Origin: an uncultured Gammaproteobacteria bacterium
Lineage (GTDB): Bacteria > Pseudomonadota > Gammaproteobacteria > UBA9214
NCBI GenBank assembly: GCA_905480065.1
Contig: CAJQOV010000030.1
Span: 1-34,612, forward strand
Reading direction: 5' to 3'
DNA length: 34,612 bases
The stretch's first letter is position 1; each line of letters begins with the position of its first letter. The translations under genes were made by a program, and so were the position numbers. Positions 4,272 to 32,982 of the stretch are shown piece after piece. The notes under the pieces are model-generated. The model had not been told where the DNA came from. It made no database searches and worked only from the letters and a program-made list of their open reading frames with translations.

Positions 4272-7200
4272 ATGGTGCAACTCCCTACCGTTTCTGAAGC
4301 CGATACCCGCGACGCCTTCGTGGCTACGCCGTTTGATGACTACGAGCTGCTGGATTTTGGCGCCGGTCGCAAGCTGGAGCGCTGGGGAGAATATCTGGTG
4401 GAGGGTCCGGATCGGCTCGCGACGGGCGCACCGGCAGAGAAGAACTGGAATGCCGACTGGGTCTATGTCGATGACGTCGGTACGCGCGGCCACTGGGAGC
4501 CGACGCGTAGCGGTCTGCCACGTGAATGGGCGGTGCGGTTAGGCGACCAGCCGGTGCTGTGCCGGCTGGGGCCGCGCGGGCAGGTCGGACTGAAGGGGCG
4601 CGATATCCCCTGTGCGCAATGGATCCGGCAGCGGATCGAGGGTTGCTATGACCTGGATGATATTCGCGTACTGAACCTGTTTGGTGGTAACGGCTATGTC
4701 TCGGCGCAGGCATTGAAGGCCGGTGCCAGCGTAGTCCACGTGGATTCCAGCGAGGAGATGCACGCGCTGGCGCGCCACATTGCCGGTCACGCCAACATCG
4801 AGTACGTGCGTGACAACGTCGTGGATTTCGTCGAAGACCTGCTGCGCCGCCAGCTGCGCTTCGACCTGATCATCCTGCCGATCCCGCCGACCGGGCATGG
4901 GCCAAAGGGGCAGTTCTGGGACCGCGAGGTGGACATGGCGCGGCTGGTAAAATACCTGCCGCGGCTGATTTCGAAAAACTGTCTCGGGGTATGGCTGTCC
5001 ACCGACAGCGGTGCGATTACCTGGAAGGCGGAGGGCCTGGGGCAGCTGCTGCGTGAGGCGCTGCCGGGTTGCACGATCGAGCCGCTGCACCTGGGCACGC
5101 AAACGCGCAGCGGCCGGGTGTTGCCGGCCGGGGTCGCGGCGCGCTGGTATGACGCGACCGAATTCCTCCAGACCAGCGGTCTGCCGCTGACGGCGGCACA
5201 GCTGGAGGAGCGGCTTGATATCCACATGATTTCGCTCGGCGCTGCAGAAGAGCCGGCGCGTGCACTCGCCGAATTTACCCGTGAGCAGCAGGATTTCGTG
5301 CTGCACTGGGTGAGTATCGTGGCGCGGACCAGTTCCGGCATGGCACTGAACTTCGTTTCTCACGTGTGCCCGGCGCTGCGCCTGATGGAACCTGCCGGCG
5401 TCGAGGCCTGGCTGCTGGCGTGCATGGATATCTATGACACCAGGGGCCTGCATCCTGCGGTGGCGATGTTCAGGGATGTGGAAAGCTTTGCGGTTGAATA
5501 CAAGGCGCGCACCACTGGCGTGGCGTTCGAGGACGTGGTCAATGTGCTGGAAATGTTTGTGCACGGGCTGAATGGCCGGCAACTGAAGATTGAATGTGCT
5601 GAACAGTGCTGTACCGACACCGAGACCATCTTCATCCCTGCCACGGTTTCCCGGTTTGAAGACAATGACGATAACTTCCAGCTCTACAAGGTCATGGTGG
5701 TACACCAGTGGGCACAGACCTGGTTCGGCACCTGGCGTATCGAGCCACAGGAAGTGTTTGGCCGCTTTCCCGACCGCGACCAGGCGCTGGCGTGCTTTCA
5801 TGTGCTGGAGACCCTGCGCCTGGATGCGCGCATCCGTGACATGTTGCCGGGTGTATACCGGCATATTGAACGCTTTCGCGCCGCCAGTACATTCACGCTC
5901 GACCCGGTATGGGAGGAGGCCGCGGGCCACCTTGCGCGCAGCGGGGCCGGCGTGGAGGACACGCTGGTGTGGCTGGCGCGCATGGTTGACCATCCCCTGC
6001 CGGGGGCATTGCTGTACCAGGGCGTGCTGAAACCGGAGGCCGTGGACAAGGTGCGCAAGGCGCGTATCGAGGCAGACAAGCAGTCGTTTCGTTTGCACCT
6101 GTTGCGGCTGGAGCAGGAGCTGCGCGAGGCGGAAGCGGCAGTCGAGGAGCCGCAGTTACAAGAGGATGCACAGGATGAGGCCGGTGAGCGCCGCTTGCCG
6201 TTTGAATTGCGTACCGTCGAGTCCGATGAATCCGTGGATGGTTTTGCCTTTGAAATGGAGCTGGATGGCAAGCCCATCGCGCCGCCGGATCAGGTCAAGG
6301 GCACCATGGCGTCGATTTTCCAGGACCTCGGAGAAATTCCGGAAGAGTATTTATATGCGGCCGGTGACGGCGCCTATGTGGCGGAGGCCATCGGCGAGCA
6401 GAGCGTCGAGGATGTCTGGAAAGGCACTTATCACGAGGAAGGCGCATTTCTCTATAACGAATGGGATTACGAGCGCCAGAACTACCGCAAGAACTGGGCG
6501 GTACTGCGTGAGCTGGAGATCAGTCCGCAGGATTCCCATTTTGTGCGTGACACGCTGGTCAAGTATCGCGGCCTGACTGCGCACCTGCGCCGCACCTTCG
6601 AGGCGCTGCGCGGCGAGGACAAACTGCTCAAGAAACAACCCTATGGCGACAATGTCGATATCGACGCACTGGTCGAGGCCTGGGCCGATACCAGCATGGG
6701 CATGGAGATGCCGGACCGCCTGTTCACCAAGAAGCACAAGCTGGAACGCGATATCGCAGTGATGTTCATGGTCGACATGAGTGGTTCCACCAAGGGCTGG
6801 ATCAACGATGCCGAGCGGGAATCGCTGGTGCTGCTGTGCGAGTCGCTGGAAACACTGGGAGATCGCTATGCCATCTACGGCTTTTCCGGCATGACGCGCA
6901 AGCGCTGCGAGGTGTACCGCGTCAAGCGCTTTGACGAGGAATACACCGACGAGGTGCGTGGACGCATTGCCGGTATCCGTCCGAAGGACTACACACGCAT
7001 GGGTGTAACCATCCGCCACCTGTGTCACCTGCTGGGACAGGTGGAGGCGCGTACCAAGCTGCTCGTTACCCTGTCCGACGGCAAGCCGGATGACTACGAT
7101 ACCTATCGCGGTGCCTATGGCATAGAGGACACGCGGCAGGCACTGATCGAGGCGCGCCGTAACGGCATTCATTCGTTCTGCATCACCATCGATACCGAGG

Positions 7201-7310
7201 CGAAGGACTACCTGCCGCACATGTACGGCGCCGTGAATTATGCGGTCATCGACGAGGTGCGCAAGTTGCCGTTGAAGGTGTCGGACATCTACCGGCGTCT
7301 GACTGCATAG
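4272..7310 (+). CDS. Fusion protein: N-terminal class I SAM-dependent methyltransferase-like domain plus NorD/CbbO-type VWA domain protein
   Basis: The N-terminal ~300 aa (LLDFGAGRKLERWG...VLNLFGGNGYVSAQALKAGASVVHVDSS...LIILPIPPTGHGPKGQFW) match the RlmI/RlmK-like SAM-MTase family. The remainder matches NorD/CbbO (LYKVMVVHQWAQTWFGTW...). The C-terminal VWA domain has an intact MIDAS motif, DMSGS at 6774..6788, and LSDGKPDDYD. The frame is continuous across the junction. Confidence 0.8.
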   Translation: MVQLPTVSEADTRDAFVATPFDDYELLDFGAGRKLERWGEYLVEGPDRLATGAPAEKNWNADWVYVDDVGTRGHWEPTRSGLPREWAVRLGDQPVLCRLGPRGQVGLKGRDIPCAQWIRQRIEGCYDLDDIRVLNLFGGNGYVSAQALKAGASVVHVDSSEEMHALARHIAGHANIEYVRDNVVDFVEDLLRRQLRFDLIILPIPPTGHGPKGQFWDREVDMARLVKYLPRLISKNCLGVWLSTDSGAITWKAEGLGQLLREALPGCTIEPLHLGTQTRSGRVLPAGVAARWYDATEFLQTSGLPLTAAQLEERLDIHMISLGAAEEPARALAEFTREQQDFVLHWVSIVARTSSGMALNFVSHVCPALRLMEPAGVEAWLLACMDIYDTRGLHPAVAMFRDVESFAVEYKARTTGVAFEDVVNVLEMFVHGLNGRQLKIECAEQCCTDTETIFIPATVSRFEDNDDNFQLYKVMVVHQWAQTWFGTWRIEPQEVFGRFPDRDQALACFHVLETLRLDARIRDMLPGVYRHIERFRAASTFTLDPVWEEAAGHLARSGAGVEDTLVWLARMVDHPLPGALLYQGVLKPEAVDKVRKARIEADKQSFRLHLLRLEQELREAEAAVEEPQLQEDAQDEAGERRLPFELRTVESDESVDGFAFEMELDGKPIAPPDQVKGTMASIFQDLGEIPEEYLYAAGDGAYVAEAIGEQSVEDVWKGTYHEEGAFLYNEWDYERQNYRKNWAVLRELEISPQDSHFVRDTLVKYRGLTAHLRRTFEALRGEDKLLKKQPYGDNVDIDALVEAWADTSMGMEMPDRLFTKKHKLERDIAVMFMVDMSGSTKGWINDAERESLVLLCESLETLGDRYAIYGFSGMTRKRCEVYRVKRFDEEYTDEVRGRIAGIRPKDYTRMGVTIRHLCHLLGQVEARTKLLVTLSDGKPDDYDTYRGAYGIEDTRQALIEARRNGIHSFCITIDTEAKDYLPHMYGAVNYAVIDEVRKLPLKVSDIYRRLTA

Positions 7311-7564
7311 CCCGCAATCGATCGGTGCCGGGCAGTTTCCGCAACCGGTACCCGCAACAAATCATCCCGGGTGGGCAGTGCGCCGACGTCGGGCTGCTGT
7401 GCGAGCGTCACTGGCCGGCAGTGGCACAACTCCGGGAGAGCCCGGATGGCACGGGCTGGTATTTTTGCCCCAGGCCGCTTTGAAAACGGCCGGGTGAAGT
7501 TTCATATCTTATTGATAAATAGATGAATAGATAATGTAGCGGGGTCGGATCCGAAAGGTATTCA

Positions 7565-7593
7565 TTGACATATGTATAAGTAAGTAGTAATAT
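7565..7593 (+). promoter_or_regulatory. Sigma70-like promoter (TTGACA-17 nt-TAATAT) in an AT-rich island
   Basis: TTGACA at 7565..7570, a 17-nt spacer, and TAATAT at 7588..7593. There is an AT-rich upstream tract at 7500..7560. It sits about 40 nt upstream of the AGGAGG/ATG of the small ORF at 7633. Confidence 0.45.
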
Positions 7594-7632: not shown

Positions 7633-7785
7633 ATGTACATCGATAACCTGACAATTTCCGCACTGATTATTTTTTTCGGTGCATTGTATCTGTTCATTCG
7701 TTACTGCGTGATTAATGTCTGCGGGTTGAAGACCGCAGGTCGTCGGCGCGTCGGCAACGGTACGCTGAAGGCGGGTAAGCTGTGA
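7633..7785 (+). CDS. 50-aa single-pass membrane peptide (below the ORF-track length cutoff)
   Basis: AGGAGG at 7621..7626 lies 6 nt before the ATG at 7633. Translation: MYIDNLTISALIIFFGALYLFIRYCVINVCGLKTAGRRRVGNGTLKAGKL, a hydrophobic helix followed by a basic tail. Its TGA (7783..7785) overlaps the GTG (7782) of the next gene as GTGA. Confidence 0.5.
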   Translation: MYIDNLTISALIIFFGALYLFIRYCVINVCGLKTAGRRRVGNGTLKAGKL

Positions 7786-8096
7786 ACCTCGCCATGCATA
7801 CCCTGCAGCTGGCCAGCCGCGACAGCCTGTCTGCCGAGTTTGCCAGATCACTGCTGGCGCACGGCGGACAGCTGGTGGACATCCGTTCACCGGATGATTT
7901 CCGGCACGGTGCATTACCCGGCGCACTTAACCTGCCCATGGACGCGCTGTGCTATGACTACAAGTACCTGGACAGAAATGAGCCGGTGATCCTGTGTGGC
8001 AACCACGGTGTTGCCTGTGTACGTGCTGCGCGGTTGCTTGCCGGGCAGGGCTTCGGACGAATCTACTTCCTGATGCTGCCGCAGCACGTCCATTAA
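7782..8096 (+). CDS. Single-domain rhodanese-like sulfurtransferase
   Basis: GGQLVDIRSPDDFRHGALPGALNLP...EPVILCGNHGVACVRAARLLAGQGF is a rhodanese fold with a Cys at the active-loop position. The start is ambiguous: GTG at 7782 or ATG at 7794. Confidence 0.7.
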   Translation: MNLAMHTLQLASRDSLSAEFARSLLAHGGQLVDIRSPDDFRHGALPGALNLPMDALCYDYKYLDRNEPVILCGNHGVACVRAARLLAGQGFGRIYFLMLPQHVH

Positions 8097-8105
8097 GTGC
8101 ACGGC

Positions 8106-8306
8106 ATGAGCATTGAGCTGTTCGAGTCGATCTCGCTGCATCTCGGTATTGGTGGTCTGGTGCTGTACATGCTGTATGTAATGTACCGGCTGGCGAAGGA
8201 ATCCGGTGCCGGTCGTTTCGGTACACTGGTGATCTTTGTTTCGCTGGGACTCGGCATTGCCGGCTTTGCGGCCAAAACGGTGATCCAGCTGGTGATGCAT
8301 GTGTAG
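8106..8306 (+). CDS. DUF2788-like small membrane protein
   Basis: MSIELFESISLHLGIGGLVLYMLYVMYRLAKESGAGRFGTLVIFVSLGLGIAGFAAKTVIQ has two TM helices with a G-x-(K/R)-FG loop, as I remember for DUF2788. The ORF-track start at 8097 is a GTG; the ATG at 8106 is preferred. Confidence 0.6.
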   Translation: MSIELFESISLHLGIGGLVLYMLYVMYRLAKESGAGRFGTLVIFVSLGLGIAGFAAKTVIQLVMHV

Positions 8307-19317: not shown

Positions 19318-21471
19318 ATGAACACGATCGCACACCTCGAAGCAGTTCCCACCGGCGTTGCGGCAATTCCGATGCAGCCGGCATCCCGGGATATCTGGGA
19401 AAAGAAGTACCGCCTGCAGGCCAAGGATGGCACGCCGGTCGACGAAACTATCGATTCCACCTATCAGCGCGTAGCGCGTGCGCTGGCGGATGTAGAAAGC
19501 ACACCCGAGGCGCGTGAAACCTGGTACCGGGAATTTCTCTGGGCGCTGCGTCATGGCGCCATTCCGGCCGGTCGCATCATATCCAATGCCGGTGCGCAGG
19601 AGCACAAGCCGGCCACCTCGACCATCAACTGCACGGTCTCCGGTATCGTCCGCGACTCCATGAATGACATCCTGGAGAAGGTGCACGAGGCGGGTCTGAC
19701 GCTGAAGGCCGGTTGCGGCATTGGTTACGAGTTTTCCACGCTGCGTCCGCGCGGCGCCTATGTCTCCGGTGCCGGCGCCTACACCTCCGGCCCGCTGTCG
19801 TTCATGGATATCTACGACAAGATGTGTTTTACCGTGTCATCCGCCGGTGGTCGGCGTGGTGCGCAGATGGCGACCTTCGATGTCGGGCACCCGGACGTCA
19901 TGGATTTTAACCGTGCCAAGCGCGAGGACGGGCGGCTGCGCCAGTTTAACCTGTCGCTGCTGATCACAACCGAGTTCATGGACGCCGTGCAGAGTGATGC
20001 GGACTGGAAGCTGGCCTTTCCGATCAGCCGCCAGGAGCTGGATGATGGTCTGGATCTGAATAATCCGGAACAGGTGATCTGGCGCGAGTGGCCATACAAG
20101 GGCGACTACGTGGCCAACAACGCCGGACTGGTGGCCTGCAAGGTCTACAAGAGCGTACCGGCGCGGCGCCTGTGGAACATGATCATGAGTTCCACCTACG
20201 ATTTCGCGGAGCCGGGTTTCATCCTGATCGACAAGGTCAACGAGATGAACAACAACTGGTTCTGCGAGAACATTCGCGCCACCAACCCGTGCGGCGAACA
20301 GCCGTTGCCCCCGTATGGTTCCTGCCTGCTCGGTTCGGTTAACCTGACCAAGTTCGTCAAGAACCCCTTTACCAGCCGTGCCGAGTTCAACTGGGAAGAA
20401 TTCCGCAAGGTAGTGGCCATCTTCACGCGCATGCTGGACAACGTGGTCGAGATCAATGGTCTGCCTCTGGCAGGACAACGTGACGAGATCATGCGCAAAC
20501 GCCGTCACGGTATGGGTTTTCTGGGGCTGGGTTCCACCGTCACCATGCTGCGCATGAAGTATGGCGAGCAGGATTCGGTAAAATTCACCGAGCGTGTCAG
20601 TCGCGAGCTGGCACTGACCGGGTGGCGGATAGCCCTGGAGCTGGCAAAGGAAAAGGGATCGGCTCCGATCATGGAGGAAGAATTCCAGGTCACCGAGGAA
20701 ATGTTGCGCAAGCGCCCGGACATGCGCCGCGATGGCTATGTGCCTGGTGACAAGGTCAAGGGCAAGGTGCTACACGCGCGCTACAGCCGCTATATGCAGC
20801 GTGTTGCCGAGGAGGCGCCGGAGCTGGCCAGCCAGCTTGCCGAGACCGGTGCCCGTTTCACCCATCACAGCTCGATTGCACCGACCGGTACAATCTCGCT
20901 GTCGCTGGCCAACAATGCCAGCAACGGCATTGAGCCGAGCTTCGCACACCACTATTTCCGTAACGTGATCCGCGAAGGCCGCAAGACCAAGGAGAAAATC
21001 GATGTATTCTCTTTCGAGCTGCTGGCCTACCGTGAGCTGGTCAATCCGAATGCGACTGCCAGCATGGAAGGGGATGGTGACAAGCTGCCGGATTATTTTA
21101 TTGCCGCAGACAATGTTACGCCGAAACAGCACGTCGATATCCAGGCCGCTGCGCAGATGTGGGTGGATTCCTCCATTTCCAAGACGGCAAACGTGCCCAC
21201 GGATTACCCGTTCGAGGACTTCAAGGATATCTACCTGTATGCCTACAAGCAGGGGCTGAAGGGATGTACCACGTTCCGCTTCAATCCGGAGGCGTTCCAG
21301 GGGGTGCTGGTCAAGGGCGAGGACCTGGAAAATACCACCTATGAGTTCACGCTCGAGGACGGTTCGAAGGTGAGCCTCAAGGGTAACGAAGAGGTCGAGT
21401 ACGACGGTGAGATGCATACCGCGGCCAACCTCTACGATGCTCTGAAAGAGGGCTATTACGGAAAATTCTGA
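19318..21471 (+). CDS. nrdJa: Adenosylcobalamin-dependent (class II) ribonucleotide reductase, large N-terminal part
   Basis: RNR catalytic core motifs are present: NPCGEQPLPPYGSCLLGSVNL (thiyl-radical Cys loop), STINCTVSG, and SSISKTANVP. Confidence 0.9.
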   Translation: MNTIAHLEAVPTGVAAIPMQPASRDIWEKKYRLQAKDGTPVDETIDSTYQRVARALADVESTPEARETWYREFLWALRHGAIPAGRIISNAGAQEHKPATSTINCTVSGIVRDSMNDILEKVHEAGLTLKAGCGIGYEFSTLRPRGAYVSGAGAYTSGPLSFMDIYDKMCFTVSSAGGRRGAQMATFDVGHPDVMDFNRAKREDGRLRQFNLSLLITTEFMDAVQSDADWKLAFPISRQELDDGLDLNNPEQVIWREWPYKGDYVANNAGLVACKVYKSVPARRLWNMIMSSTYDFAEPGFILIDKVNEMNNNWFCENIRATNPCGEQPLPPYGSCLLGSVNLTKFVKNPFTSRAEFNWEEFRKVVAIFTRMLDNVVEINGLPLAGQRDEIMRKRRHGMGFLGLGSTVTMLRMKYGEQDSVKFTERVSRELALTGWRIALELAKEKGSAPIMEEEFQVTEEMLRKRPDMRRDGYVPGDKVKGKVLHARYSRYMQRVAEEAPELASQLAETGARFTHHSSIAPTGTISLSLANNASNGIEPSFAHHYFRNVIREGRKTKEKIDVFSFELLAYRELVNPNATASMEGDGDKLPDYFIAADNVTPKQHVDIQAAAQMWVDSSISKTANVPTDYPFEDFKDIYLYAYKQGLKGCTTFRFNPEAFQGVLVKGEDLENTTYEFTLEDGSKVSLKGNEEVEYDGEMHTAANLYDALKEGYYGKF

Positions 21472-21523
21472 CCGCTCGCGCCCAGATGGCGTTTGCAGGC
21501 GGGTTGTTAATCAGGAGCACAGC

Positions 21524-22225
21524 ATGACTATACGTATCGAGAAGAAGATCGTCGGTTACAAGGTTGCGGACAAGGATGAATTGAAGCAGAACGAAACGGC
21601 GAAGGTTCCCGACCTGCACCGCCAGGACAATATCGTGCAGTTGCACGAACGGCTGGAACGCCCGGAGATGCTGATCGGTTCGACCTACAAGGTCAAGACG
21701 CCACTGACCGAGCACGCACTGTATGTGACCATCAACGATATTGTGCTCAATCACGGCACCGAGAATGAACTGCGCCGTCCGTTCGAGATCTTTATCAACT
21801 CCAAGAACATGGACCACTTCCAGTGGATTGTGGCGCTGACCCGGATTATCTCTGCCGTGTTCCGCAAGGGGGGTGACGTGACCTTCCTGGTGGAGGAGTT
21901 GCGCTCGGTGTTCGATCCGCGTGGTGGTTACTTCAAGAAGGGTGGCAAGTATATGCCGTCACTGGTGGCAGAAATCGGCGATGCCATTGAATGTCATATG
22001 CGCATGATCGGTCTGCTGAAGGATGATGGGCTCGACGAGCACCAGAAGAAACTGGTGGCCGAGAAGCGTGCCCAGTATGAAGCGTCCAGGGGTGGCATGC
22101 CGAGTGCCGATCCGGGTGATTTCCCGGAAGGCTCGCAGCTCTGCATGAAGTGTCAGACCAAGGCCGCGATTGTCATGGATGGCTGCCTGACCTGCCTGAA
22201 CTGTGGTGAGTCGAAGTGCGGCTAA
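21524..22225 (+). CDS. nrdJb: Class II ribonucleotide reductase C-terminal part (TSCPD-like region plus Cys-rich tail)
   Basis: ERPEMLIGSTYKVKTPLTEHALYVTINDIVL...PFEIFINSKNMDHFQWIVALTRIISAVFRKGGDV corresponds to the C-terminal part of NrdJ. The tail is CMKCQTKAAIVMDGCLTCLNCGESKCG. AGGAG RBS. This is the same split arrangement described for Pseudomonas aeruginosa nrdJab. Confidence 0.8.
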   Translation: MTIRIEKKIVGYKVADKDELKQNETAKVPDLHRQDNIVQLHERLERPEMLIGSTYKVKTPLTEHALYVTINDIVLNHGTENELRRPFEIFINSKNMDHFQWIVALTRIISAVFRKGGDVTFLVEELRSVFDPRGGYFKKGGKYMPSLVAEIGDAIECHMRMIGLLKDDGLDEHQKKLVAEKRAQYEASRGGMPSADPGDFPEGSQLCMKCQTKAAIVMDGCLTCLNCGESKCG

Positions 22226-23122: not shown

Positions 23123-24832
23123 ATGTATCTGGACCACTTCGACCTGAGAGAACGTCCCTTCTCGATCACACCCGATCCGCGCTTCCTGTATATGAGTGCG
23201 CGTCATCGCGAAGCATTGGCGCACCTCCTGTACGGCCTGGGTGAAGGCGGGGGGTTCGTGCAGCTGACCGGCGAGGTCGGCACCGGCAAGACCACGATTT
23301 GTCGCTGTCTGCTGGAACAGGTGCCGGACAATGTCGATATCGCCATGGTGCTCAATCCCAAGGTTACCGCGACCGAGCTGATTGCGACGGTATGTGACGA
23401 GCTGGGTGTCAGCTACCCGGCCGAAAACACCAGTATCAAGACCATGGTTGATATCCTCAATCGTTACCTGCTGGATGCCCATGCGCGTGGTCGTCGCACG
23501 GTGCTGATCATCGACGAGGCCCAAAACCTGTCAAGGGATGTGCTGGAGCAGGTACGCCTGCTGACCAACCTTGAAACACCGACGCAAAAGCTGTTGCAGA
23601 TCATCCTGATCGGGCAGCCGGAATTGCGGGAATTGCTGGCCCGTGAAGATATGCGTCAGCTGGCCCAGCGCGTTACCGCCCGTTACCACCTTGAACCGAT
23701 CAGTCGCGAGGAAACCGGCGCCTACATCCGCCATCGCCTGCAGATATGCGGGACGTCGAAAGTGCTGTTCAACAAGGGTGCGGTTGATCGAATACAGCAT
23801 TTGTCCGGCGGGATTCCGCGCCTGATCAACGTGCTGTGTGACCGTGCCATGCTGGGCGCCTATGTAGAGAGCAGGGCTGTGGTAGACGGGCGCGTGGTAC
23901 GCAAGGCTGCCCGCGAAGTGCTGGCGGAGGAGACCGGCGGAAACGGGTCCGCTGGTAGTCGCTTGCCGTGGGTGCTGACGGGCGCAGCGCTGCTGGTGCT
24001 GGCCGTGCTCGGTTACCTGTATCAGCCCTGGGGGACGTCACCAGCGGTTACGCCGACTGCGGCGGTGCAGCCGAAGCCAGCACCGGCCCCGGTCGAGGCG
24101 GTCGAGCCGGACCAGCAGAAACCGGAACTGGCGGCTGTGGTGCCGCTAGCCGGTGCCGACCCGCAGGCCGTCGCTGTCACAGCAGAAATTGCACCGCAAG
24201 AGATCGATCTCGATGAGCTGCTCTTGGCAGCAGACAGCGGCTGGTACCATGCAGCATGGACCGGATTGCTGCACTTGTGGGCGGTCGAATTGCCGCTGGA
24301 AGTCAGGCCGGATTTCTGTAATTACGCGCTGGAGTACGGTCTGCTGTGTTCCAGTGAGCAGGGTAACTGGAATACGGTCCGGCATACCAATCGTCCGGCC
24401 ATACTAAAGCTGGTAGATGCAGACGGGATCCGGGTGCCGGTGCTGTTGCAGCAACTGCAAGGCGAGCAGGCCATGCTGGTGCTGGGTGGTGAGCCTCATG
24501 CGATAGATATCAGCGTTATTGACCAGTACTGGTTCGGTGAGTACACGCTGCTGTTGCAGGCCCCCCCGGGCGGACGTTTGCTGCTCGGTGTGGGTGAACG
24601 CAATTCCGACGTGGCCTGGCTGCGCGAACAGCTGGAAAACGTGCAAGGGGTGAAGATTCTGTCCCCGGATCCCCAGCTGTTCGACTATCCACTGCAGAAA
24701 CAGGTGCTGGAGTTTCAGCGCAGTCGCGGACTGGTGGCTGATGGCATAGTTGGCAAGAACACTTTGATCCAGCTGAATTCTTCTTCCGGACGGGAGGGTG
24801 TGCCGGTGTTGCAAACGGTCGCGGTGGAGTAA
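23123..24832 (+). CDS. exeA: ExeA/GspA-family AAA ATPase with a C-terminal peptidoglycan-binding domain
   Basis: MYLDHFDLRERPFSITPDPRFLYMSARHREAL...LTGEVGTGKTT (Walker A)...VLIIDEAQNL (Walker B), then a central TM segment (LPWVLTGAALLVLAVLGYLY). The C-terminal PG_binding_1 motif is LQKQVLEFQRSRGLVADGIVGKNTL. Confidence 0.85.
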   Translation: MYLDHFDLRERPFSITPDPRFLYMSARHREALAHLLYGLGEGGGFVQLTGEVGTGKTTICRCLLEQVPDNVDIAMVLNPKVTATELIATVCDELGVSYPAENTSIKTMVDILNRYLLDAHARGRRTVLIIDEAQNLSRDVLEQVRLLTNLETPTQKLLQIILIGQPELRELLAREDMRQLAQRVTARYHLEPISREETGAYIRHRLQICGTSKVLFNKGAVDRIQHLSGGIPRLINVLCDRAMLGAYVESRAVVDGRVVRKAAREVLAEETGGNGSAGSRLPWVLTGAALLVLAVLGYLYQPWGTSPAVTPTAAVQPKPAPAPVEAVEPDQQKPELAAVVPLAGADPQAVAVTAEIAPQEIDLDELLLAADSGWYHAAWTGLLHLWAVELPLEVRPDFCNYALEYGLLCSSEQGNWNTVRHTNRPAILKLVDADGIRVPVLLQQLQGEQAMLVLGGEPHAIDISVIDQYWFGEYTLLLQAPPGGRLLLGVGERNSDVAWLREQLENVQGVKILSPDPQLFDYPLQKQVLEFQRSRGLVADGIVGKNTLIQLNSSSGREGVPVLQTVAVE

Positions 24833-27380: not shown

Positions 27381-28182
27381 TCGAAGTAGCTCCTCGTTGA
27401 ATGATAGATAAAACAGCATGCGTAAGATAGCACATAAAATTAAATGTGAAAGCGTTTTGAAGTTCTAAAAAGCCTTTTTTTGTAGGATTTTATGGCTTCA
27501 GAACCGGGTGCTTCAGCTGTTTACGCTGACGACGCCTCTGTGAGCGGTTGCTGTGTGAGCTGGTCTGGTGGCGGGAATGGTGTGTGACACAGGCCCGAAT
27601 GACACGTTTTGCGAACAGGTCAGCAATAATAATACACTGTAAATAAAGGCATAATCGCGTTATCTCCAGGACATCGGCATGCAGGTGATCGGGCATCGAC
27701 AATGCCTGCCCGATTCGCAGGTGTGCATGCCAGGCAGGAATGCCTGTGTCCAGCACGGCATCTGCAACCGGGGCCGGTTCATCCGGATAGCAGCAGCCCA
27801 TCATCTGGCTGCTTCGGGAGCAGCGGCTGCTCACCAACGGGGCGCGTGCCGGACGCCTGCGCTTTCGACAAGTCCCGCCGCTGCGTGTGCCGGGTGCCGC
27901 GGCTGTGCTGCCGGCGAATGCGCCCTGACCGCCAGGGGGGATCTTTCCTGGCGCGTAATAAAGTACCTAAAACATCAAATAAAACAATGAATTAAATGGT
28001 TATATTATTATCCGGGCGGACGTCCTGTAACCCCGGCCTATGCGCGCATGGGGAGGCCTGGCACACGCTGCCTTTACACCTAAATAACAGTTCCCGCCAG
28101 CCGATACGCTGGGAGCAGCCTATTGCCGCCTCGGTATTTGCCGGGTGGTACAACTTACAGACTTTCACAGCGAAGAGTGGAT

Positions 28183-31100
28183 ATGCGCGCCGCACCCAAA
28201 AAGACCGAAGACAGAAAAATTCTCCAGGAGCTCGTTCCGCTGAATGCGTTGTCAGAGGAGCGCTTCCAGGAACTGGCCAGCAAGATCATCATCGAGGAGG
28301 TGAAGGCTGGTCGCTACCTGTTCCGCCAGGGTGATCGCGATAACCAGTCAATCTACCTGCTGGACGGGAAGGTCAACCTGATCGATGGCTTCCGCAAGGT
28401 GGTCGGTGAAGTGGAGGCGGGTACCGATATCAGTCGCTACCCGATCGCCGGACAGCAACCCAGGCCATTTTCCGCACGTGTGGTCAAGAAGGCTGTGATC
28501 GCGCGCATCGATTCCGGCCTGCTTGATGTTTTCCTGACCTGGGATCAGTCCAGCACCGCCGAGGTAATGGAAATCGGGGTGGACGAAAACAATGACTGGA
28601 TGACCCGCCTGCTGCAATCCGAGGCATTCTGCCAGTTACCACCGGCAAAATTGCAGGGACTGCTGATGAAGATGAGGCCAGTCTCGGTCAGCTGCGGCGA
28701 AGTTGTCATCGAAGAGGGAAGCGAGGGCGATTACTTTTACACAATCCATGAAGGTCGTTGCGTGGTTACCCGCACGGACAAGAGCACAGGAATGGTTCAG
28801 ACGCTGGCTGAATTGTCTGATGGCGATTCGTTTGGCGAGGAAGCACTGGTTTCGAGCGGTACCCGCAATGCAACCATTACCATGTTGACAGACGGGCAGC
28901 TAATGCAGCTGGCAAAGCGGGACTTCGAGGAGTTGCTCCACAAGGAGCTGGTCAAGCATGTCAGCCTGGAGCAGTCCGAGCTGCTGGTGCAGGAAGGAGC
29001 AGTCTGGGTCGATGTGCGCACCCCGGATGAATACCAGCAGGGGTCCTTCGAGGACAGTGTAAATATTCCACTTTCTTCCCTGCGTGGTGAATTGCCAGAG
29101 CTGGTGTTCAATGCGAAATACATTATTTGTTGCGATACCGGACGGCGCAGCGAATCTGCCGGGTTTCTCCTGAGTCACAAGGGCTTCGACGTCTATGTGC
29201 TGGAAGGCGGAATCAGTGGCAAGCAGAGCGATGCAGATGAGTCCATGGACGACGGGGTATTTGCGGCGGACTTGCGTGACCCAGTGGTCACTCTGGCAAG
29301 TGATACTGCTGAATTATTTCCGGATACCCCCTGGGGCGTGGCGGGGGCAGTAGCCAGCGCAGAAGCCACAGTAGACGCCGGCACAGATCCCGCAGCAGAC
29401 GCAAGCGAACAGTTATTGCGGTTGCAGTCCGAGTACGATGCCTTGCACGGCCAATATGAAGCGTTGCTGGTTGTGCAGCAACAGCAGGATGTGGCAAAAG
29501 AGAGTCTCGAGAATCAGCTTGAGCAGTTGCGCGGCGAGCTCGGTGAATCTGCTGAAAAGCTGACAGAAATATTCACGCGTAGCTCGGGACTGGACGAGGA
29601 AAGACAGTTGTTGCGTGAACAATATGCTGCATTGCAGGAAGAACATGCGGATATGTTGTCTACGCTACAGGCAGATCTCGACAAGGAACGACATCATGCG
29701 CAGCATTTGCAGCGCGAGCTGGAAACAATAACCGGCGAGCGTGCCATGCTTGGCGAGCAGGTGGAATCCGGGCGTCTGGATTTGCAGACAACTCTCGACA
29801 CGGTGAAATCGGAGCTGGATGAGTCGCGGCGGAAGATTGCGATGTTTGAATCCCGTCTGGATGAGGTCTCGTCAGAGCGTGAGCAATTGCAGAAGGAGAA
29901 CCGCGAACTTAACAGCGAGCTCGCCGGCTTGCAGGCAATGAATGACAGTGCCGGCGGTGAACTGGAAAAACGTGATGAGGTGCTGGATCAGTTGCGAGCC
30001 GGAAATGCGGCGCTTGAGCAGCAGCTTGAGTCGGTCCGTGCAGATCTGGCTGAACGCCAGTTGCAGCTCGATTCTGTAACGGCAGAGTCGACTGACCGAC
30101 TAGAGGCGCTGCAGCACCAGTACGATGAACAGCTGGTTCAACTGAAACAAATGCAGGATCTGCTGGCTGGAGAATCAAAAGATAATGCACAGGCATCAGC
30201 CGCTATAACCAGCCTGCAGGAAGAAAACAATCATCTGCGCAGCTCCATGCGTGAGTTGAATTCCAGGATCGCGCAACAATTCGAACAGATTGAGAACCTG
30301 GGCGCGGATCGCCGGGCAATCGATGATCTGAACTCGAAACAGCAGCTGGAGTGGGAAAAAGAGCGTGATGCATTGCAGGTGCAATTGGCAGAACTCAACG
30401 CCTTGTCTGCACGGTTACAGGATGAGCGGTTGCGTGAACAGGAGGAATTGCAACAGACCAGGGAAAGTTTCGAGAAGCAGCACCTGGAGCAGGTCGACAG
30501 GTACAATGCCGCGCTGGAAAAACATGAACAGCAGTTTGCAGAGATGCGGAGTTCACTGTCGGTAAAGAATGAAGAGCTCGATCTTGCCAGGCAGGAACAG
30601 CAACATCTGCAGAAACAACTCGTCGAAAGCGTGGCGGAAAATTCGAATATCGAGGAGAAGGTAACGGCATTACAGGCGGAAATAACCAGGCTTGCAGAAG
30701 GGTCAGATCAGCAAATCACGGAGTTGCAGGGACAGATCCAGGCGGGTGAACAGAATGTTCTGCAGCTGCAGAACGAGGTCGCCAATAAAGATGAACAGCT
30801 GACCGCGCTGCGACTGGAGATTAACCAGCATGAACTCGCAAGCACGGTTCACGTGCAGGAGCTGGACCTGCTGCGTGCACAGTTGCAGGAAATGCAGGGC
30901 GCACATGAGTTGCACGGTGAGCAGGTGCGAAATCTTGAGCAGAGTATCCAGGAGGCGGCTCGCAAGGCGCACGAGGATCTCAAGCGCAAGAATGATAACG
31001 AAAAGGAATTGCAGGGCCAGGTCGAGCGCCTGCGCAAAAAACTCGAACAGGTTACCGGCGATTACCAGAAATCGCGCAAGGATGCGCAGGACAATGTTGA

Positions 31101-32982
31101 TCAGCTGCGCGAGGAACTGCATGCCGAACGCCAGGCCCGTGATGACGAGCGGGCACAAATGGCTGCCCGGCAGCGTGAACTGAAGGAGCAGCTGACGGCG
31201 GTAGCTTCCGAGCATGAGGTAAATTTCAGTAACCAGTCCGGTGTGATTGAGGAAGCAATCGATGCCGCCCGGAAAGATGAGCGAGCCCGTCTGCAGGGCG
31301 TCATGGACACCCATGCCGCAACCGAGTCGTTACTGGAGCAAGTGCAGCAGGAACTGCGCCAGGCGCGTACCGAGCTGGCCGAATACCGTCGGCTGGAAAA
31401 AGATCGCAGACAGGGTGATGTCGAACTCATAGAGGAGCAGAACCAGCAGGCCGAGGCTGCGATCAGCCAGCTGCATACCCAGCTGAAGCAGCTCACGGAA
31501 GAGCGTGACGACGCGCTTGAGCAACAGATTACCTTGCGCGAGAGAATGGATGCACTGCGCGGCGAGGTCGAGGTTGCGCGTGGCCTGATGAATGCATCTG
31601 CCCAGGGCTGTCTCGAAGATCCGGTACAACTGCGCAAGCAGCTGGATGAAACGCGCAAGAATGTAGAAATCGCCGTGCGTCTGCGTGCCGAGGCAGAAGC
31701 GGCGCGTGACCGGCTGCAGGATGAGTGTGATCGCCTGCTGGTGCAGGTTGGAGGCGGACAGGGTCAGGGAGCGTTCAGTAACACATCTGCACCGGTAATC
31801 CAGCCTGAATCGATGGCCAAGGCAGTTTACGAACCGGCCGCAGCGACCCGGAAAGAAAAGCCGGCTGCTGGCAAGTCACGGCCGCAATCGCCCGCAACTG
31901 ACCAGAAACGCACATGGTCCCGCTGGCTGTTTCCTGCAATCAGTATGGCTATCCTGGTCGTGTCCGGCGTGCTTGTCTGGTCACTGCTCGGTGAATACCC
32001 GTCGTTACAGGATGAAACGTCGATGGATGAGGCGTCGTCTGCAGACGTTGTATTACCTGTGCAAAGCGTGCCAAACCCGCAGCAGTCGTCAGTATTGCCG
32101 GACACGGCGAGAACTGAGCAGTCTTCCCGGCCGGGCGTGAGCCCTGCGCCGCTGGTGGTAGAGCCAGCGCATGAGCCGGATGCAGTGGTCCCAGATCCCG
32201 CGCCAGCGCAAGCGGAAAAGGCGCCCGTGGTAGCAGTGGCGCCAGCGCCGGTCGTGCGTACATTCAGCGACAGTCTGAAGAGCGGTGGTAATGGACCTCG
32301 TATGGTGCAACTTGCGCCAGCGACCTTCCAGATGGGCAGCGTGGGCAATTCAATCAATTCTGAAGAAGTGCCACGCCACGATGTGACGCTGGGAGCGTAT
32401 TCAATCAGTAGTCATGAAGTGACCTTTGCTGATTATGATCGTTACGCACGCGCTACCGGGCAACGCCTGCCGTATGACGAATCCTGGGGCAGGGGCAAGC
32501 AGCCAGTGATCAATGTATCCTGGAAAGATGCTCAGGGTTACGTGAAATGGCTGTCTGTGCAAACCGGAAATACCTATCGTCTGCCCACCGAGGCAGAGTG
32601 GGAGTACGCTGCACGTGCCGGCAATGTCGCCAGCTACTGGTGGACAGAGGTGTACGAAACCATACCCGCGAACTGCTTCAATTGCGGCAGCAAATGGGAT
32701 GGCGCACGAACTGCGCCGGTTGGCCAGTTCGCTGCAAACAGCCTCGGACTCTACGACATGGCCGGTAATGTGCAGGAGTGGACGGCGGACTGTTACCATC
32801 AAAATTATGTCGGTGCGCCGGCCGATGGCAGTGCCTGGGAGGGCGTGGATTGTTCGCAACGGGTGGTCAGGGGTGGCGCGTACTCCAGTCCCCTGAATAC
32901 ATTGCGCAGCGCAAATCGTGCACAGCTGGCGGAGGATACCCGTCTCGACAACCTTGGCTTCCGGGTAGTCCGCGCAGAGTGA
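28183..32982 (+). CDS. Giant multidomain membrane protein: 2x cNMP-binding, rhodanese, long coiled coil, TM helix, FGE/SUMF1-like domain
   Basis: cNMP-binding domain 1 is at about 28231..28515. cNMP-binding domain 2 is at about 28612..28940 and contains GDSFGEEAL. The rhodanese domain is 28996..29220, with active loop CDTGRRS at 29131..29151. A heptad-rich E/Q/L/R segment runs about 29407..31749. The TM helix WSRWLFPAISMAILVVSGVLVWSLLG is at 31915..31992. A Pro-rich linker follows. The FGE-sulfatase-like domain at about 32257..32979 has RLPTEAEWEYAARAG, GLYDMAGNVQEW and RVVRGGAY. The ATG at 28183 is preferred over the TTG at 28123. Confidence 0.85.
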   Translation: MRAAPKKTEDRKILQELVPLNALSEERFQELASKIIIEEVKAGRYLFRQGDRDNQSIYLLDGKVNLIDGFRKVVGEVEAGTDISRYPIAGQQPRPFSARVVKKAVIARIDSGLLDVFLTWDQSSTAEVMEIGVDENNDWMTRLLQSEAFCQLPPAKLQGLLMKMRPVSVSCGEVVIEEGSEGDYFYTIHEGRCVVTRTDKSTGMVQTLAELSDGDSFGEEALVSSGTRNATITMLTDGQLMQLAKRDFEELLHKELVKHVSLEQSELLVQEGAVWVDVRTPDEYQQGSFEDSVNIPLSSLRGELPELVFNAKYIICCDTGRRSESAGFLLSHKGFDVYVLEGGISGKQSDADESMDDGVFAADLRDPVVTLASDTAELFPDTPWGVAGAVASAEATVDAGTDPAADASEQLLRLQSEYDALHGQYEALLVVQQQQDVAKESLENQLEQLRGELGESAEKLTEIFTRSSGLDEERQLLREQYAALQEEHADMLSTLQADLDKERHHAQHLQRELETITGERAMLGEQVESGRLDLQTTLDTVKSELDESRRKIAMFESRLDEVSSEREQLQKENRELNSELAGLQAMNDSAGGELEKRDEVLDQLRAGNAALEQQLESVRADLAERQLQLDSVTAESTDRLEALQHQYDEQLVQLKQMQDLLAGESKDNAQASAAITSLQEENNHLRSSMRELNSRIAQQFEQIENLGADRRAIDDLNSKQQLEWEKERDALQVQLAELNALSARLQDERLREQEELQQTRESFEKQHLEQVDRYNAALEKHEQQFAEMRSSLSVKNEELDLARQEQQHLQKQLVESVAENSNIEEKVTALQAEITRLAEGSDQQITELQGQIQAGEQNVLQLQNEVANKDEQLTALRLEINQHELASTVHVQELDLLRAQLQEMQGAHELHGEQVRNLEQSIQEAARKAHEDLKRKNDNEKELQGQVERLRKKLEQVTGDYQKSRKDAQDNVDQLREELHAERQARDDERAQMAARQRELKEQLTAVASEHEVNFSNQSGVIEEAIDAARKDERARLQGVMDTHAATESLLEQVQQELRQARTELAEYRRLEKDRRQGDVELIEEQNQQAEAAISQLHTQLKQLTEERDDALEQQITLRERMDALRGEVEVARGLMNASAQGCLEDPVQLRKQLDETRKNVEIAVRLRAEAEAARDRLQDECDRLLVQVGGGQGQGAFSNTSAPVIQPESMAKAVYEPAAATRKEKPAAGKSRPQSPATDQKRTWSRWLFPAISMAILVVSGVLVWSLLGEYPSLQDETSMDEASSADVVLPVQSVPNPQQSSVLPDTARTEQSSRPGVSPAPLVVEPAHEPDAVVPDPAPAQAEKAPVVAVAPAPVVRTFSDSLKSGGNGPRMVQLAPATFQMGSVGNSINSEEVPRHDVTLGAYSISSHEVTFADYDRYARATGQRLPYDESWGRGKQPVINVSWKDAQGYVKWLSVQTGNTYRLPTEAEWEYAARAGNVASYWWTEVYETIPANCFNCGSKWDGARTAPVGQFAANSLGLYDMAGNVQEWTADCYHQNYVGAPADGSAWEGVDCSQRVVRGGAYSSPLNTLRSANRAQLAEDTRLDNLGFRVVRAE

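Follow-up and report, generated by a model that had tools for sequence, protein, structure and literature searches.

A methyltransferase-like domain fused to a CbbO/NorD-type adaptor in an uncharacterized CbbQ/NorQ subfamily linked to qmoAB-hdrCB

A stretch of 34,612 nucleotides of contig CAJQOV010000030.1 (positions 1 to 34,612) from an uncultured gammaproteobacterium (assembly GCA_905480065.1), referred to here as the window, includes at 4272..7310 on the plus strand a single unbroken open reading frame (ORF) that starts with ATG and encodes a protein of 1012 amino acids (aa). The protein is an adaptor of the CbbO/NorD type to which a methyltransferase (MT) domain with a degenerate catalytic motif has been added, and it belongs to an uncharacterized CbbQ/NorQ subfamily linked to qmoAB-hdrCB. 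Taking all the evidence together, we consider it probable that the gene codes for the adaptor subunit, with a VWA domain and its MIDAS (an adhesion site dependent on metal ions), of a CbbQ/NorQ-subfamily MoxR AAA+ remodeling chaperone of sulfur-oxidizing Gammaproteobacteria; the host lineages of the system are Thiogranum, Thiohalobacter and Ectothiorhodospiraceae-like metagenome-assembled genomes (MAGs). MoxR-VWA pairs are widespread and only a few of their clients are known, namely Rubisco, nitric oxide (NO) reductase, carbon monoxide dehydrogenase, chelatases and fumarate reductase. The results described below point to a third CbbQ/NorQ-type subfamily, one whose link is with qmoAB-hdrCB and not with Rubisco or NO reductase.

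The protein consists of four parts: the MT fold (aa ~10-295), an N-terminal adaptor domain (aa ~300-600), a linker (aa ~600-720), and a finger, VWA domain and C-terminus (aa ~720-1012). The term fusion is used here for an MT domain and a CbbO/NorD-type body encoded in one ORF, and relatives without the first of these are called MT-less. The features of the gene are the following:

4272..7310, plus strand: complete MT-like/CbbO-NorD-like fusion gene, stop codon included (ORF list; full-length conservation in more than 120 clusters).
4299..5156, plus strand: class I MT-like domain, aa ~10-295, with a small beta N-domain and a Rossmann fold of the 2igt/RlmI/RlmK type (phmmer, AlphaFold2 (AF2), Foldseek).
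4668..4751, plus strand: predicted S-adenosylmethionine (SAM)-binding motifs I, VLNLFGGNGYVS (aa 133-144), and II, VVHVDSS (aa 154-160) (family alignment).
4875..4910, plus strand: degenerate motif IV, LPIPPTGHGPKG, aa 202-213 (alignments).
5172..6071, plus strand: CbbO/NorD-type N-terminal helical domain, aa ~301-600 (alignment to MT-less relatives, AF2).
6072..6431, plus strand: acidic flexible linker, aa ~601-720, with 31 D/E against 10 K/R (variability, AF2, position in NorD).
6432..7307, plus strand: NorD-like finger, VWA domain and C-terminus ending in DIYRRLTA, aa 721-1012 (phmmer, profile search).

When 5.8 billion proteins were searched, the window protein was matched over 100% of the query, at 69-86% identity, by more than 120 clusters of proteins 993-1043 aa long, from gammaproteobacterial MAGs and Thiogranum longum. 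Full-length fusions from other genomes were more divergent, with MT domains only 37-47% identical, and the family set came to at least 148 distinct full-length sequences. Within the window's clade and a sister clade, the MT domain had a ratio of nonsynonymous to synonymous substitution rates (dN/dS) of 0.11-0.21; the middle domain had 0.14-0.20, the linker 0.06-0.20 and the VWA part 0.03-0.08. Since more than 120 clusters are conserved over the full length and purifying selection acts on each of the four domains, a frameshift, a mis-assembly or a two-gene artefact was ruled out. An earlier note, made from the letters of the window alone, had described an MT domain and a NorD/CbbO-type body in a single frame and had suggested that an MT-like module for target recognition or RNA binding in a remodeling system would be an undescribed use of the adaptor family. 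The fusion was confirmed by the full-length conservation, and no specific description of a methyltransferase-CbbO/NorD fusion was found in the literature.

The same note had seen no AAA+ partner nearby. This is correct for the window, since Pfam annotation of the major ORFs and tblastn detected no CbbQ/NorQ, nor or Rubisco gene in its 34.6 kb, but it does not make the adaptor an orphan. Species-representative genomes were scanned for co-occurrence using a chimeric query composed of CbbQ and the window MT domain, and the loci were classed by tblastn. For 36 distinct fusion loci the available sequence reached far enough upstream to be counted; cbbQ was found directly upstream of the fusion in 27, including L002, L003, L008, L010, L011, L013 and L017, where the gene codes for AAA_5 and CbbQ_C domains. 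It was located 2.4 kb upstream in one locus and 8 kb upstream in another, and seven had no cbbQ within 4-10 kb; all seven belong to the window's clade. In the linked arrangement, which is present in Thiogranum longum and many MAGs, a cbbQ gene encoding 270 aa is divergent from a qmoA-qmoB-hdrC-hdrB-like cluster. This partner ATPase matched Acidithiobacillus ferrooxidans CbbQ (6l1q) with E=1.6e-103 and NorQ (9qh4) with E=3e-98. In a neighbor-joining tree, computed without support values, all MT-bearing adaptors formed one clade and the window's group was nested among the linked members. The locus counts and this nesting indicate that the linkage is ancestral and that the separation of cbbQ from the adaptor gene in the window's clade is a derived rearrangement caused by insertions.

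Genomes of the window's clade retain an intact cbbQ, either 8 kb or 65 kb upstream of the fusion or on another contig. In locus L049, whose fusion is 81% identical to that of the window, the qmo/hdr-cbbQ group lies 8 kb upstream, and among the genes inserted in this interval are those for an AraC/DJ-1 regulator, a DsrC-like protein, EamA, a two-component system and a protein with a Spondin_N domain. L073, which has cbbQ and qmo/hdr, and L005, which has the fusion, are 65 kb apart in the same orientation on one contig of 729,236 bp, and in assembly JBATGJ01 both genes are present on separate contigs. L035 is the closest relative; its upstream genes are the same as those of the window, and a stretch of 10 kb contains no cbbQ. 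The CbbQ proteins of the window's clade, which are 87-99% identical, form one group and have Walker A and Walker B intact. For the genome from which the window comes, a partner tens of kilobases away is therefore probable. Relocation of the adaptor was also seen, apparently independently, in Sedimenticola-type genomes. At L042-L048, L073, L074, L082, L095 and L097 the adaptor is not adjacent, and cbbQ is still found beside qmoA in divergent orientation.

The partner ATPase of L002 (8911-9723) and those of the other cbbQ loci have two Cys residues 22 positions apart (GPTGCGKT ... VSCHDD), the same P-loop pair spacing as that of NorQ Cys46/Cys68. In NorQ, these residues form a disulfide that distorts the P-loop and leaves almost no ATPase activity (PMC13036017). 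Redox switching may be common to the family.

The cluster beside cbbQ codes for two HdrA-like flavoproteins, one QmoA-like and the other QmoB-like with an MvhD/VhuD domain, as well as for HdrC-like and HdrB-like proteins. It is also the neighbor of MT-less CbbQ/CbbO-like pairs in Sedimenticolaceae, Ca. Thiodiazotropha, tubeworm (Escarpia) symbionts and Chromatiaceae. The CbbQ proteins of these pairs are 79-87% identical and are likewise encoded divergently from qmoA; their adaptor bodies are homologous over the whole length, with 34-45% identity in the middle domain and 68-79% in the VWA part. They differ from the fusions in having no MT-like domain and begin at the equivalent of aa ~300 of the window protein. 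When the search was reversed and QmoA loci were scanned in the metagenomes of the Joint Genome Institute (JGI), a divergent cbbQ was present 250-830 bp upstream in 29 of 64 informative loci; these include nearly all the loci whose QmoA is at least 79% identical and few of those with a more distant one. In sulfur oxidizers, the qmoAB-hdrBC genes form an operon-like group of unclear function that was proposed to serve adenosine 5′-phosphosulfate (APS) reductase (PMC4136832). No mention of a MoxR-VWA pair beside qmo/hdr, or of a link between NorQ/CbbQ and qmo/hdr, was found in the literature. Judging from synteny only, the leading candidate for the client is a QmoAB-HdrCB-like flavo/iron-sulfur complex or its partner in APS-reductase-linked sulfite oxidation. 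If a Qmo/Hdr-like complex is the client, the pair would provide a handle on the assembly or regulation of this complex.

The hosts are Calvin-cycle sulfur oxidizers, the partner ATPase scores slightly higher against solved CbbQ (349 and 341 bits) than against NorQ (332 and 323 bits), and pgk, pyk and fba genes adjoin L002, L011 and L017. These observations would fit a variant CbbO, that is, the adaptor of a Q-type Rubisco activase whose Rubisco is encoded elsewhere and in which the MT domain is an accessory, and publications on symbionts do annotate such genes as Rubisco activation genes (PMC13137333). With the CbbO of A. ferrooxidans (Q1O1/Q2O2) the window protein has in common a large VWA adaptor, a perfect MIDAS, a poorly conserved N-terminus of the kind that binds the CbbQ hexamer, a CbbQ-type MoxR ATPase as partner, and the gene order cbbQ then adaptor; the PDB searches yielded no CbbO chain. 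Nonetheless, we regard the Rubisco explanation as unlikely. Canonical cbbQ-cbbO genes are located directly 3′ of the Rubisco genes (PMC4660213), whereas the conserved neighbor of the genes studied here is qmo/hdr and not cbb, and no Rubisco genes were found upstream in the loci examined. A tblastn search detected no Rubisco large-subunit gene within 6-10 kb of about 180 loci (about 2.3 Mb), an absence that counts as somewhat weaker evidence. In addition, the bodies measure ~700-740 aa compared with ~770 aa for CbbO, which also has no MT-like domain. A subfamily linked to qmoAB-hdrCB is the reading that we retain. Related genes with this linkage, including those of well-studied animal symbionts, are now annotated "NorQ/NorD" or "Rubisco activation", and matches to cbbQ/cbbO in metagenomes or metatranscriptomes should not always be taken as evidence of carbon fixation.

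The same loci showed other recurrent genes. The 3-6 kb gaps found between qmoA and cbbQ at some loci were considered as a possible location for Rubisco, which was ruled out: they hold a REC-PAS-GGDEF-EAL gene, and tblastn with RbcL was blank. Orthologs of this gene, encoding ~820-860 aa, are located between qmoA and cbbQ in L046, L051, L063, L064, L065 and L093, which are Thiodiazotropha-type and related loci, and this suggests regulation linked to cyclic di-GMP at the qmoA-cbbQ locus. In many loci hdrB is flanked by a gene for a SrkA/YihE-type Ser/Thr kinase (2472-3461 in L002; NCBIfam PRK11768, 473 bits), which may belong to the conserved set of genes. In genomes of the window's clade, DsrC-like genes were found directly upstream of the fusion in L007 (9591-9926) and, as mentioned, between cbbQ and the fusion in L049 (13958-14368). 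Enzymes with a CCG domain (HdrB/DsrK-like) use DsrC-type proteins as substrates, and these neighbors may hint at the pathway.

The identity of the N-terminal domain was established by sequence and by predicted structure. Residues 22-267 matched a SAM methyltransferase of Agrobacterium tumefaciens (2igt) with E=4e-21 in phmmer searches of the PDB sequences, which also gave a weak match of the domain to RlmI (3c0k). AF2 modeled the domain with a predicted local distance difference test (pLDDT) score of ~85-90, and the Foldseek matches were 2igt (template modeling (TM) score 0.78, E=1e-21), RlmI 3c0k (E=9e-10) and RlmO 4dmg (the latter two with E~1e-9 to 1e-8), followed by related RNA methyltransferases. 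The RlmI/RlmK-like assignment of the earlier note is thus right as a fold, and the class I Rossmann fold and the N-terminal beta domain of the PF10672 family are both present. In profile searches, the window MT domain had no PF10672 match even at E<=1 and only sub-threshold ones to Methyltransf_25/11/31, and Pfam and NCBIfam searches with the fusion protein gave nothing beyond sub-threshold matches to generic methyltransferases and VWA. Standalone homologues (P0256, P0340 and P0388; 289-343 aa, 36-46% identical) pass the PF10672 threshold. With the enzymes of this family (RlmI, the C-domain of RlmK/L, RlmO) the domain shares, besides the fold, the N-terminal motif YxLxDFGxGxxLE, kept in the fusions as YxLxDFGxGRxLE, together with motifs I and II and the loop GxGPxGxxW. 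The L-LF-G-G and HV[DE] patterns are kept in nearly all 148 fusions and in the standalone relatives; across the fusions, motif I reads VLNLFGGNG and motif II HVD or HVE, and the loop that follows motif IV, GHGPKGxxWDxxVD, is strongly conserved.

Motif IV itself is degenerate. Standalone relatives of the METHYLTRANSFERASE-like domain have the canonical DPP[TS][FY]GRGPKG (DPP[TS][FY]G[RH]GP[KR]G in the alignment), with DPPTF, DPPSF or DPPTY at its core. In the fusions the core is PIPPT (the window), PAPPL, PAPDL, QPPRV, RPPAL or others; among the aligned fusions, only the deepest-branching L025 (LDPPHF) has kept the Asp and the aromatic residue, and all the common variants among the 148 fusions lack them. 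In related amino-methylating enzymes of the RlmK/L, RsmD and PrmC type, the DPPxF/Y motif positions the target atom, and because this motif is degenerate the domain was read as probably non-catalytic. It would be a module maintained by selection, perhaps with SAM or a ligand of the ancestral type still bound by it. An active RNA methyltransferase role is unlikely since the canonical catalytic motif has been lost; residual or altered catalysis is possible, as is the role in target recognition that the earlier note had suggested. The domain therefore differs from the PF10672 enzymes in its motif IV, in the missing profile match, and in being fused to the adaptor of a MoxR ATPase instead of forming a standalone rRNA enzyme. 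If it is indeed a non-catalytic module, it would be a rare enzyme fold re-used as an AAA+ adaptor module.

A more active part for the domain was also considered, in which the protein would be a "remodel-and-modify" enzyme: with the target held or opened by the CbbQ motor, it would methylate its client protein, a cofactor or an RNA. The apparent retention of SAM-binding motifs I and II, a GHGPKGQxWDREVD loop and an N-terminal YELxDFGxGRKLERxG shared with the standalone proteins that pass PF10672, and the purifying selection on the domain would all suit such an enzyme. We hold it to be quite unlikely, because the D of motif IV is replaced by P, A, Q, R, T or H and the aromatic by T, V, L or I, a variability expected of a position without a catalytic role, and because the window domain scores nothing against PF10672. 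A degenerate MT module accreted to the adaptor remains the interpretation that we prefer. In the tree of adaptor bodies, the domain was acquired within the adaptor lineage, apparently once. Two MT-less adaptors inside the MT-bearing clade of the same tree (L080 12853-14955 and L083 15307-17331), located 2-4.5 kb from cbbQ, may represent secondary losses. Rosetta-stone support was sought without success: no standalone MT gene was found beside the MT-less cbbQ/cbbO-like pairs. The neighbor of P0256 is a GGDEF-EAL gene that is unrelated (21% identity) to the one in the qmoA-cbbQ gaps.

The rest of the protein is a complete adaptor. In an exhaustive search with aa 1-720, residues ~302-720 aligned to residues ~4-420 of many MT-less proteins of 690-740 aa (E=1e-35 to 1e-80), and therefore aa ~300-1012 correspond to a whole CbbO/NorD-type adaptor to which the first ~300 residues were added. 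The middle domain was modeled by AF2 as helical, with pLDDT up to ~90 and much of aa 420-620 confident, and it includes the best-conserved motif of the family, TDTETIFIP...NFQLYKV (aa 448-474, nt 5613-5693). A profile search showed a faint colinear match of TDTETxYLP...NFxLYKA to DGEvLRLP...aNgaLYvWLA of NorD.

The following region, with the acidic stretch EQELREAEAAVEEPQLQEDAQDEAGE at aa 614-639 (nt 6111-6188), had been described in the earlier note as an acidic helical insert. It is not an insert. The region exists in 123 variants in 148 members, with 35-53 residues between conserved anchors, its pLDDT falls below 50 at aa 625-641, and it occupies the position of the flexible linker of NorD. 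Since in NorD a linker of ~150 residues, unresolved between the N-terminal and VWA domains, is essential for metal insertion (PMC13036017), the acidic linker is an expected feature of the family.

Similarity to NorD is clear in the C-terminal ~290 residues. By phmmer, aa 723-1011 matched residues 351-644 of NorD (PDB 9qhd_G) with E=3e-49, and a profile of the MT-less relatives matched NorD with E=3.5e-76 over the end of the linker, the finger, the VWA domain and the C-terminus; Foldseek also matched the C-terminus of the fusion to NorD chains. The intact MIDAS noted earlier was borne out, as D835, S837 and S839 of the DMSGS motif (nt 6774-6788), T908 (nt 6993-6995) and D936 (nt 7077-7079) align to the NorD MIDAS and are invariant in 148 of 148 family members. 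Alignment A1 shows residues 714-746 and 996-1011 to be invariant, and the alignment with NorD runs unbroken from NorD residue ~347 to 644, including the IYRxL end; it covers the finger and the C-terminus, the putative NorQ-contacting elements. NorD (PDB 9qhd-9qhg, 9qh6) and its partner NorQ insert FeB into cytochrome c-dependent NO reductase (cNOR). The window protein and NorD appear to have a common plan consisting of an N-terminal helical domain, a long flexible linker, a VWA domain and an IYRxL tail. They differ in the extra MT-like N-terminus of ~300 aa, in the length of the body (~710 compared with ~640 aa) and in the neighboring genes, which are qmoAB-hdrCB-like with no norCB nearby.

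The CbbQO and NorQD systems suggest by analogy that a single adaptor would bind the CbbQ hexamer, using the finger, the C-terminus and the N-terminal domain. An acidic residue or carboxylate of the client could be gripped by the MIDAS, and ATP-driven rotation might stretch or twist the acidic linker, remodeling the client or letting a cofactor in; the pseudo-MT domain could act as an additional, non-catalytic module for docking the client or for sensing SAM or another ligand. The roles given to the linker, finger and C-terminus follow the mechanisms described for the known systems (PMC13036017, PMC4660213). A more specific proposal, which we advance only tentatively and with low confidence, is that of a dedicated and so far unrecognized MoxR-VWA machine in sulfur-oxidizing Gammaproteobacteria that would mature or remodel the QmoAB-HdrCB-type electron-transfer complex of the APS-reductase pathway, as NorQD does for NO reductase. 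The adaptor of one lineage would carry a dead RlmI-type MT module for docking the client or for sensing SAM or another ligand, by which the action of the chaperone would be coupled to a metabolic signal.

Several observations weigh against the reading of the gene as an adaptor with a dead MT module in a qmo/hdr-linked system. The partner was not seen in the window's own genome, which puts it over 4.27 kb upstream or over 27 kb downstream, and the adaptor gene has repeatedly drifted away from the cluster. As to the client, which was assigned from gene neighborhood, 35 of the 64 QmoA loci, from more distant lineages, lack an adjacent cbbQ, and at 10 loci an MT-less CbbQ/CbbO-like pair is without qmo/hdr genes in the sequence within reach. 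The loss of DPPxF/Y is no proof of lost catalysis, the loop after motif IV is conserved, and non-canonical methyltransferases exist. The similarity of the middle domain to NorD's N-terminal domain was non-significant (0.5 bits) in the profile search. Finally, the AF2 model, whose alignment held only close homologues, was poor over the VWA part. The full-length model, for which most Foldseek matches were to the MT and VWA parts, was excluded from the reading of contacts between domains.

The genes around the fusion in the window raise one more explanation, a NorD-like factor for a haem-copper oxidase, here the cbb3 oxidase encoded by ccoNOQP/ccoGHIS, comparable to NorQD in the insertion of FeB into cNOR. 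Although cNOR and the cbb3 oxidases are related and the genes of the window's clade are found 0.4-7 kb from rhodanese-ccoS-ccoI/ccoNOQP (the window, L001, L005 and L006), we consider this highly improbable since there are no cco genes nearby in the 27 loci with the ancestral CbbQ-linked arrangement, where DegP-like and class II ribonucleotide reductase (RNR) genes follow the fusion, since no nor gene turned up when gene tables of related loci were read, and since the window gene is apparently its own transcription unit. That it seems to be so follows from pattern matches of a consensus scan only:

7439..7457, plus strand: hairpin resembling a terminator, with a T tract, 130 nt past the stop codon.
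7565-7593: promoter-like site before the unit of a 50-aa ORF, rhodanese and DUF2788.

The flanks are those given in the earlier note, a minus-strand DUF4382/DUF7507 lipoprotein-like gene on one side and the 50-aa ORF, rhodanese and DUF2788 genes on the other. According to Pfam annotation, the window resembles a segment of a proteobacterial chromosome with genes for the DUF4382 lipoprotein-like protein, rhodanese, DUF2788, ccoS/ccoI, Yip1, ccoNOQP, ccoG/ccoH, DsbD_2, a class II RNR with TSCPD, GspA/GspB, a protein of 1619 aa with cyclic nucleotide (cNMP)-binding, rhodanese and FGE-sulfatase domains, and an SBF transporter. The sole COX1-family gene is ccoN, with FixO/FixP neighbors, and Rfam and tRNA scans of the window returned nothing relevant. 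The GspA-like AAA_22 protein (23123-24832) was ruled out as the partner ATPase because it is not of the MoxR/AAA_5 type and adjoins GspB.

Other arrangements in the window were observed. The hydrophobic 50-aa ORF lies directly 5′ of the rhodanese gene, with DUF2788 where present, beside ccoS/ccoI (window 7633-7785, 7782-8096 and 8097-8306, plus strand); the same ORF-rhodanese arrangement was found in L001 (13243-13694), L005 (20268-20740) and L006 (19555-20230), and it looks like a conserved small-protein unit by the cbb3 oxidase assembly genes. The class II RNR and TSCPD pair is located at 19318-22225, 12 kb from the fusion and past the cco cluster, and in Thiogranum-type loci it lies just downstream of the fusion (L002 14932-17824, L011 16500-19479 and L013 15909-18796). 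Comparison of these positions places the cco block of the window between genes that elsewhere are near neighbors. The 1619-aa ORF (28123-32982, plus strand) has an unusual architecture, with two cyclic-nucleotide-binding domains, a rhodanese domain, ~1000 intervening residues without a Pfam match and a C-terminal FGE-sulfatase (formylglycine-generating-enzyme-like) domain.

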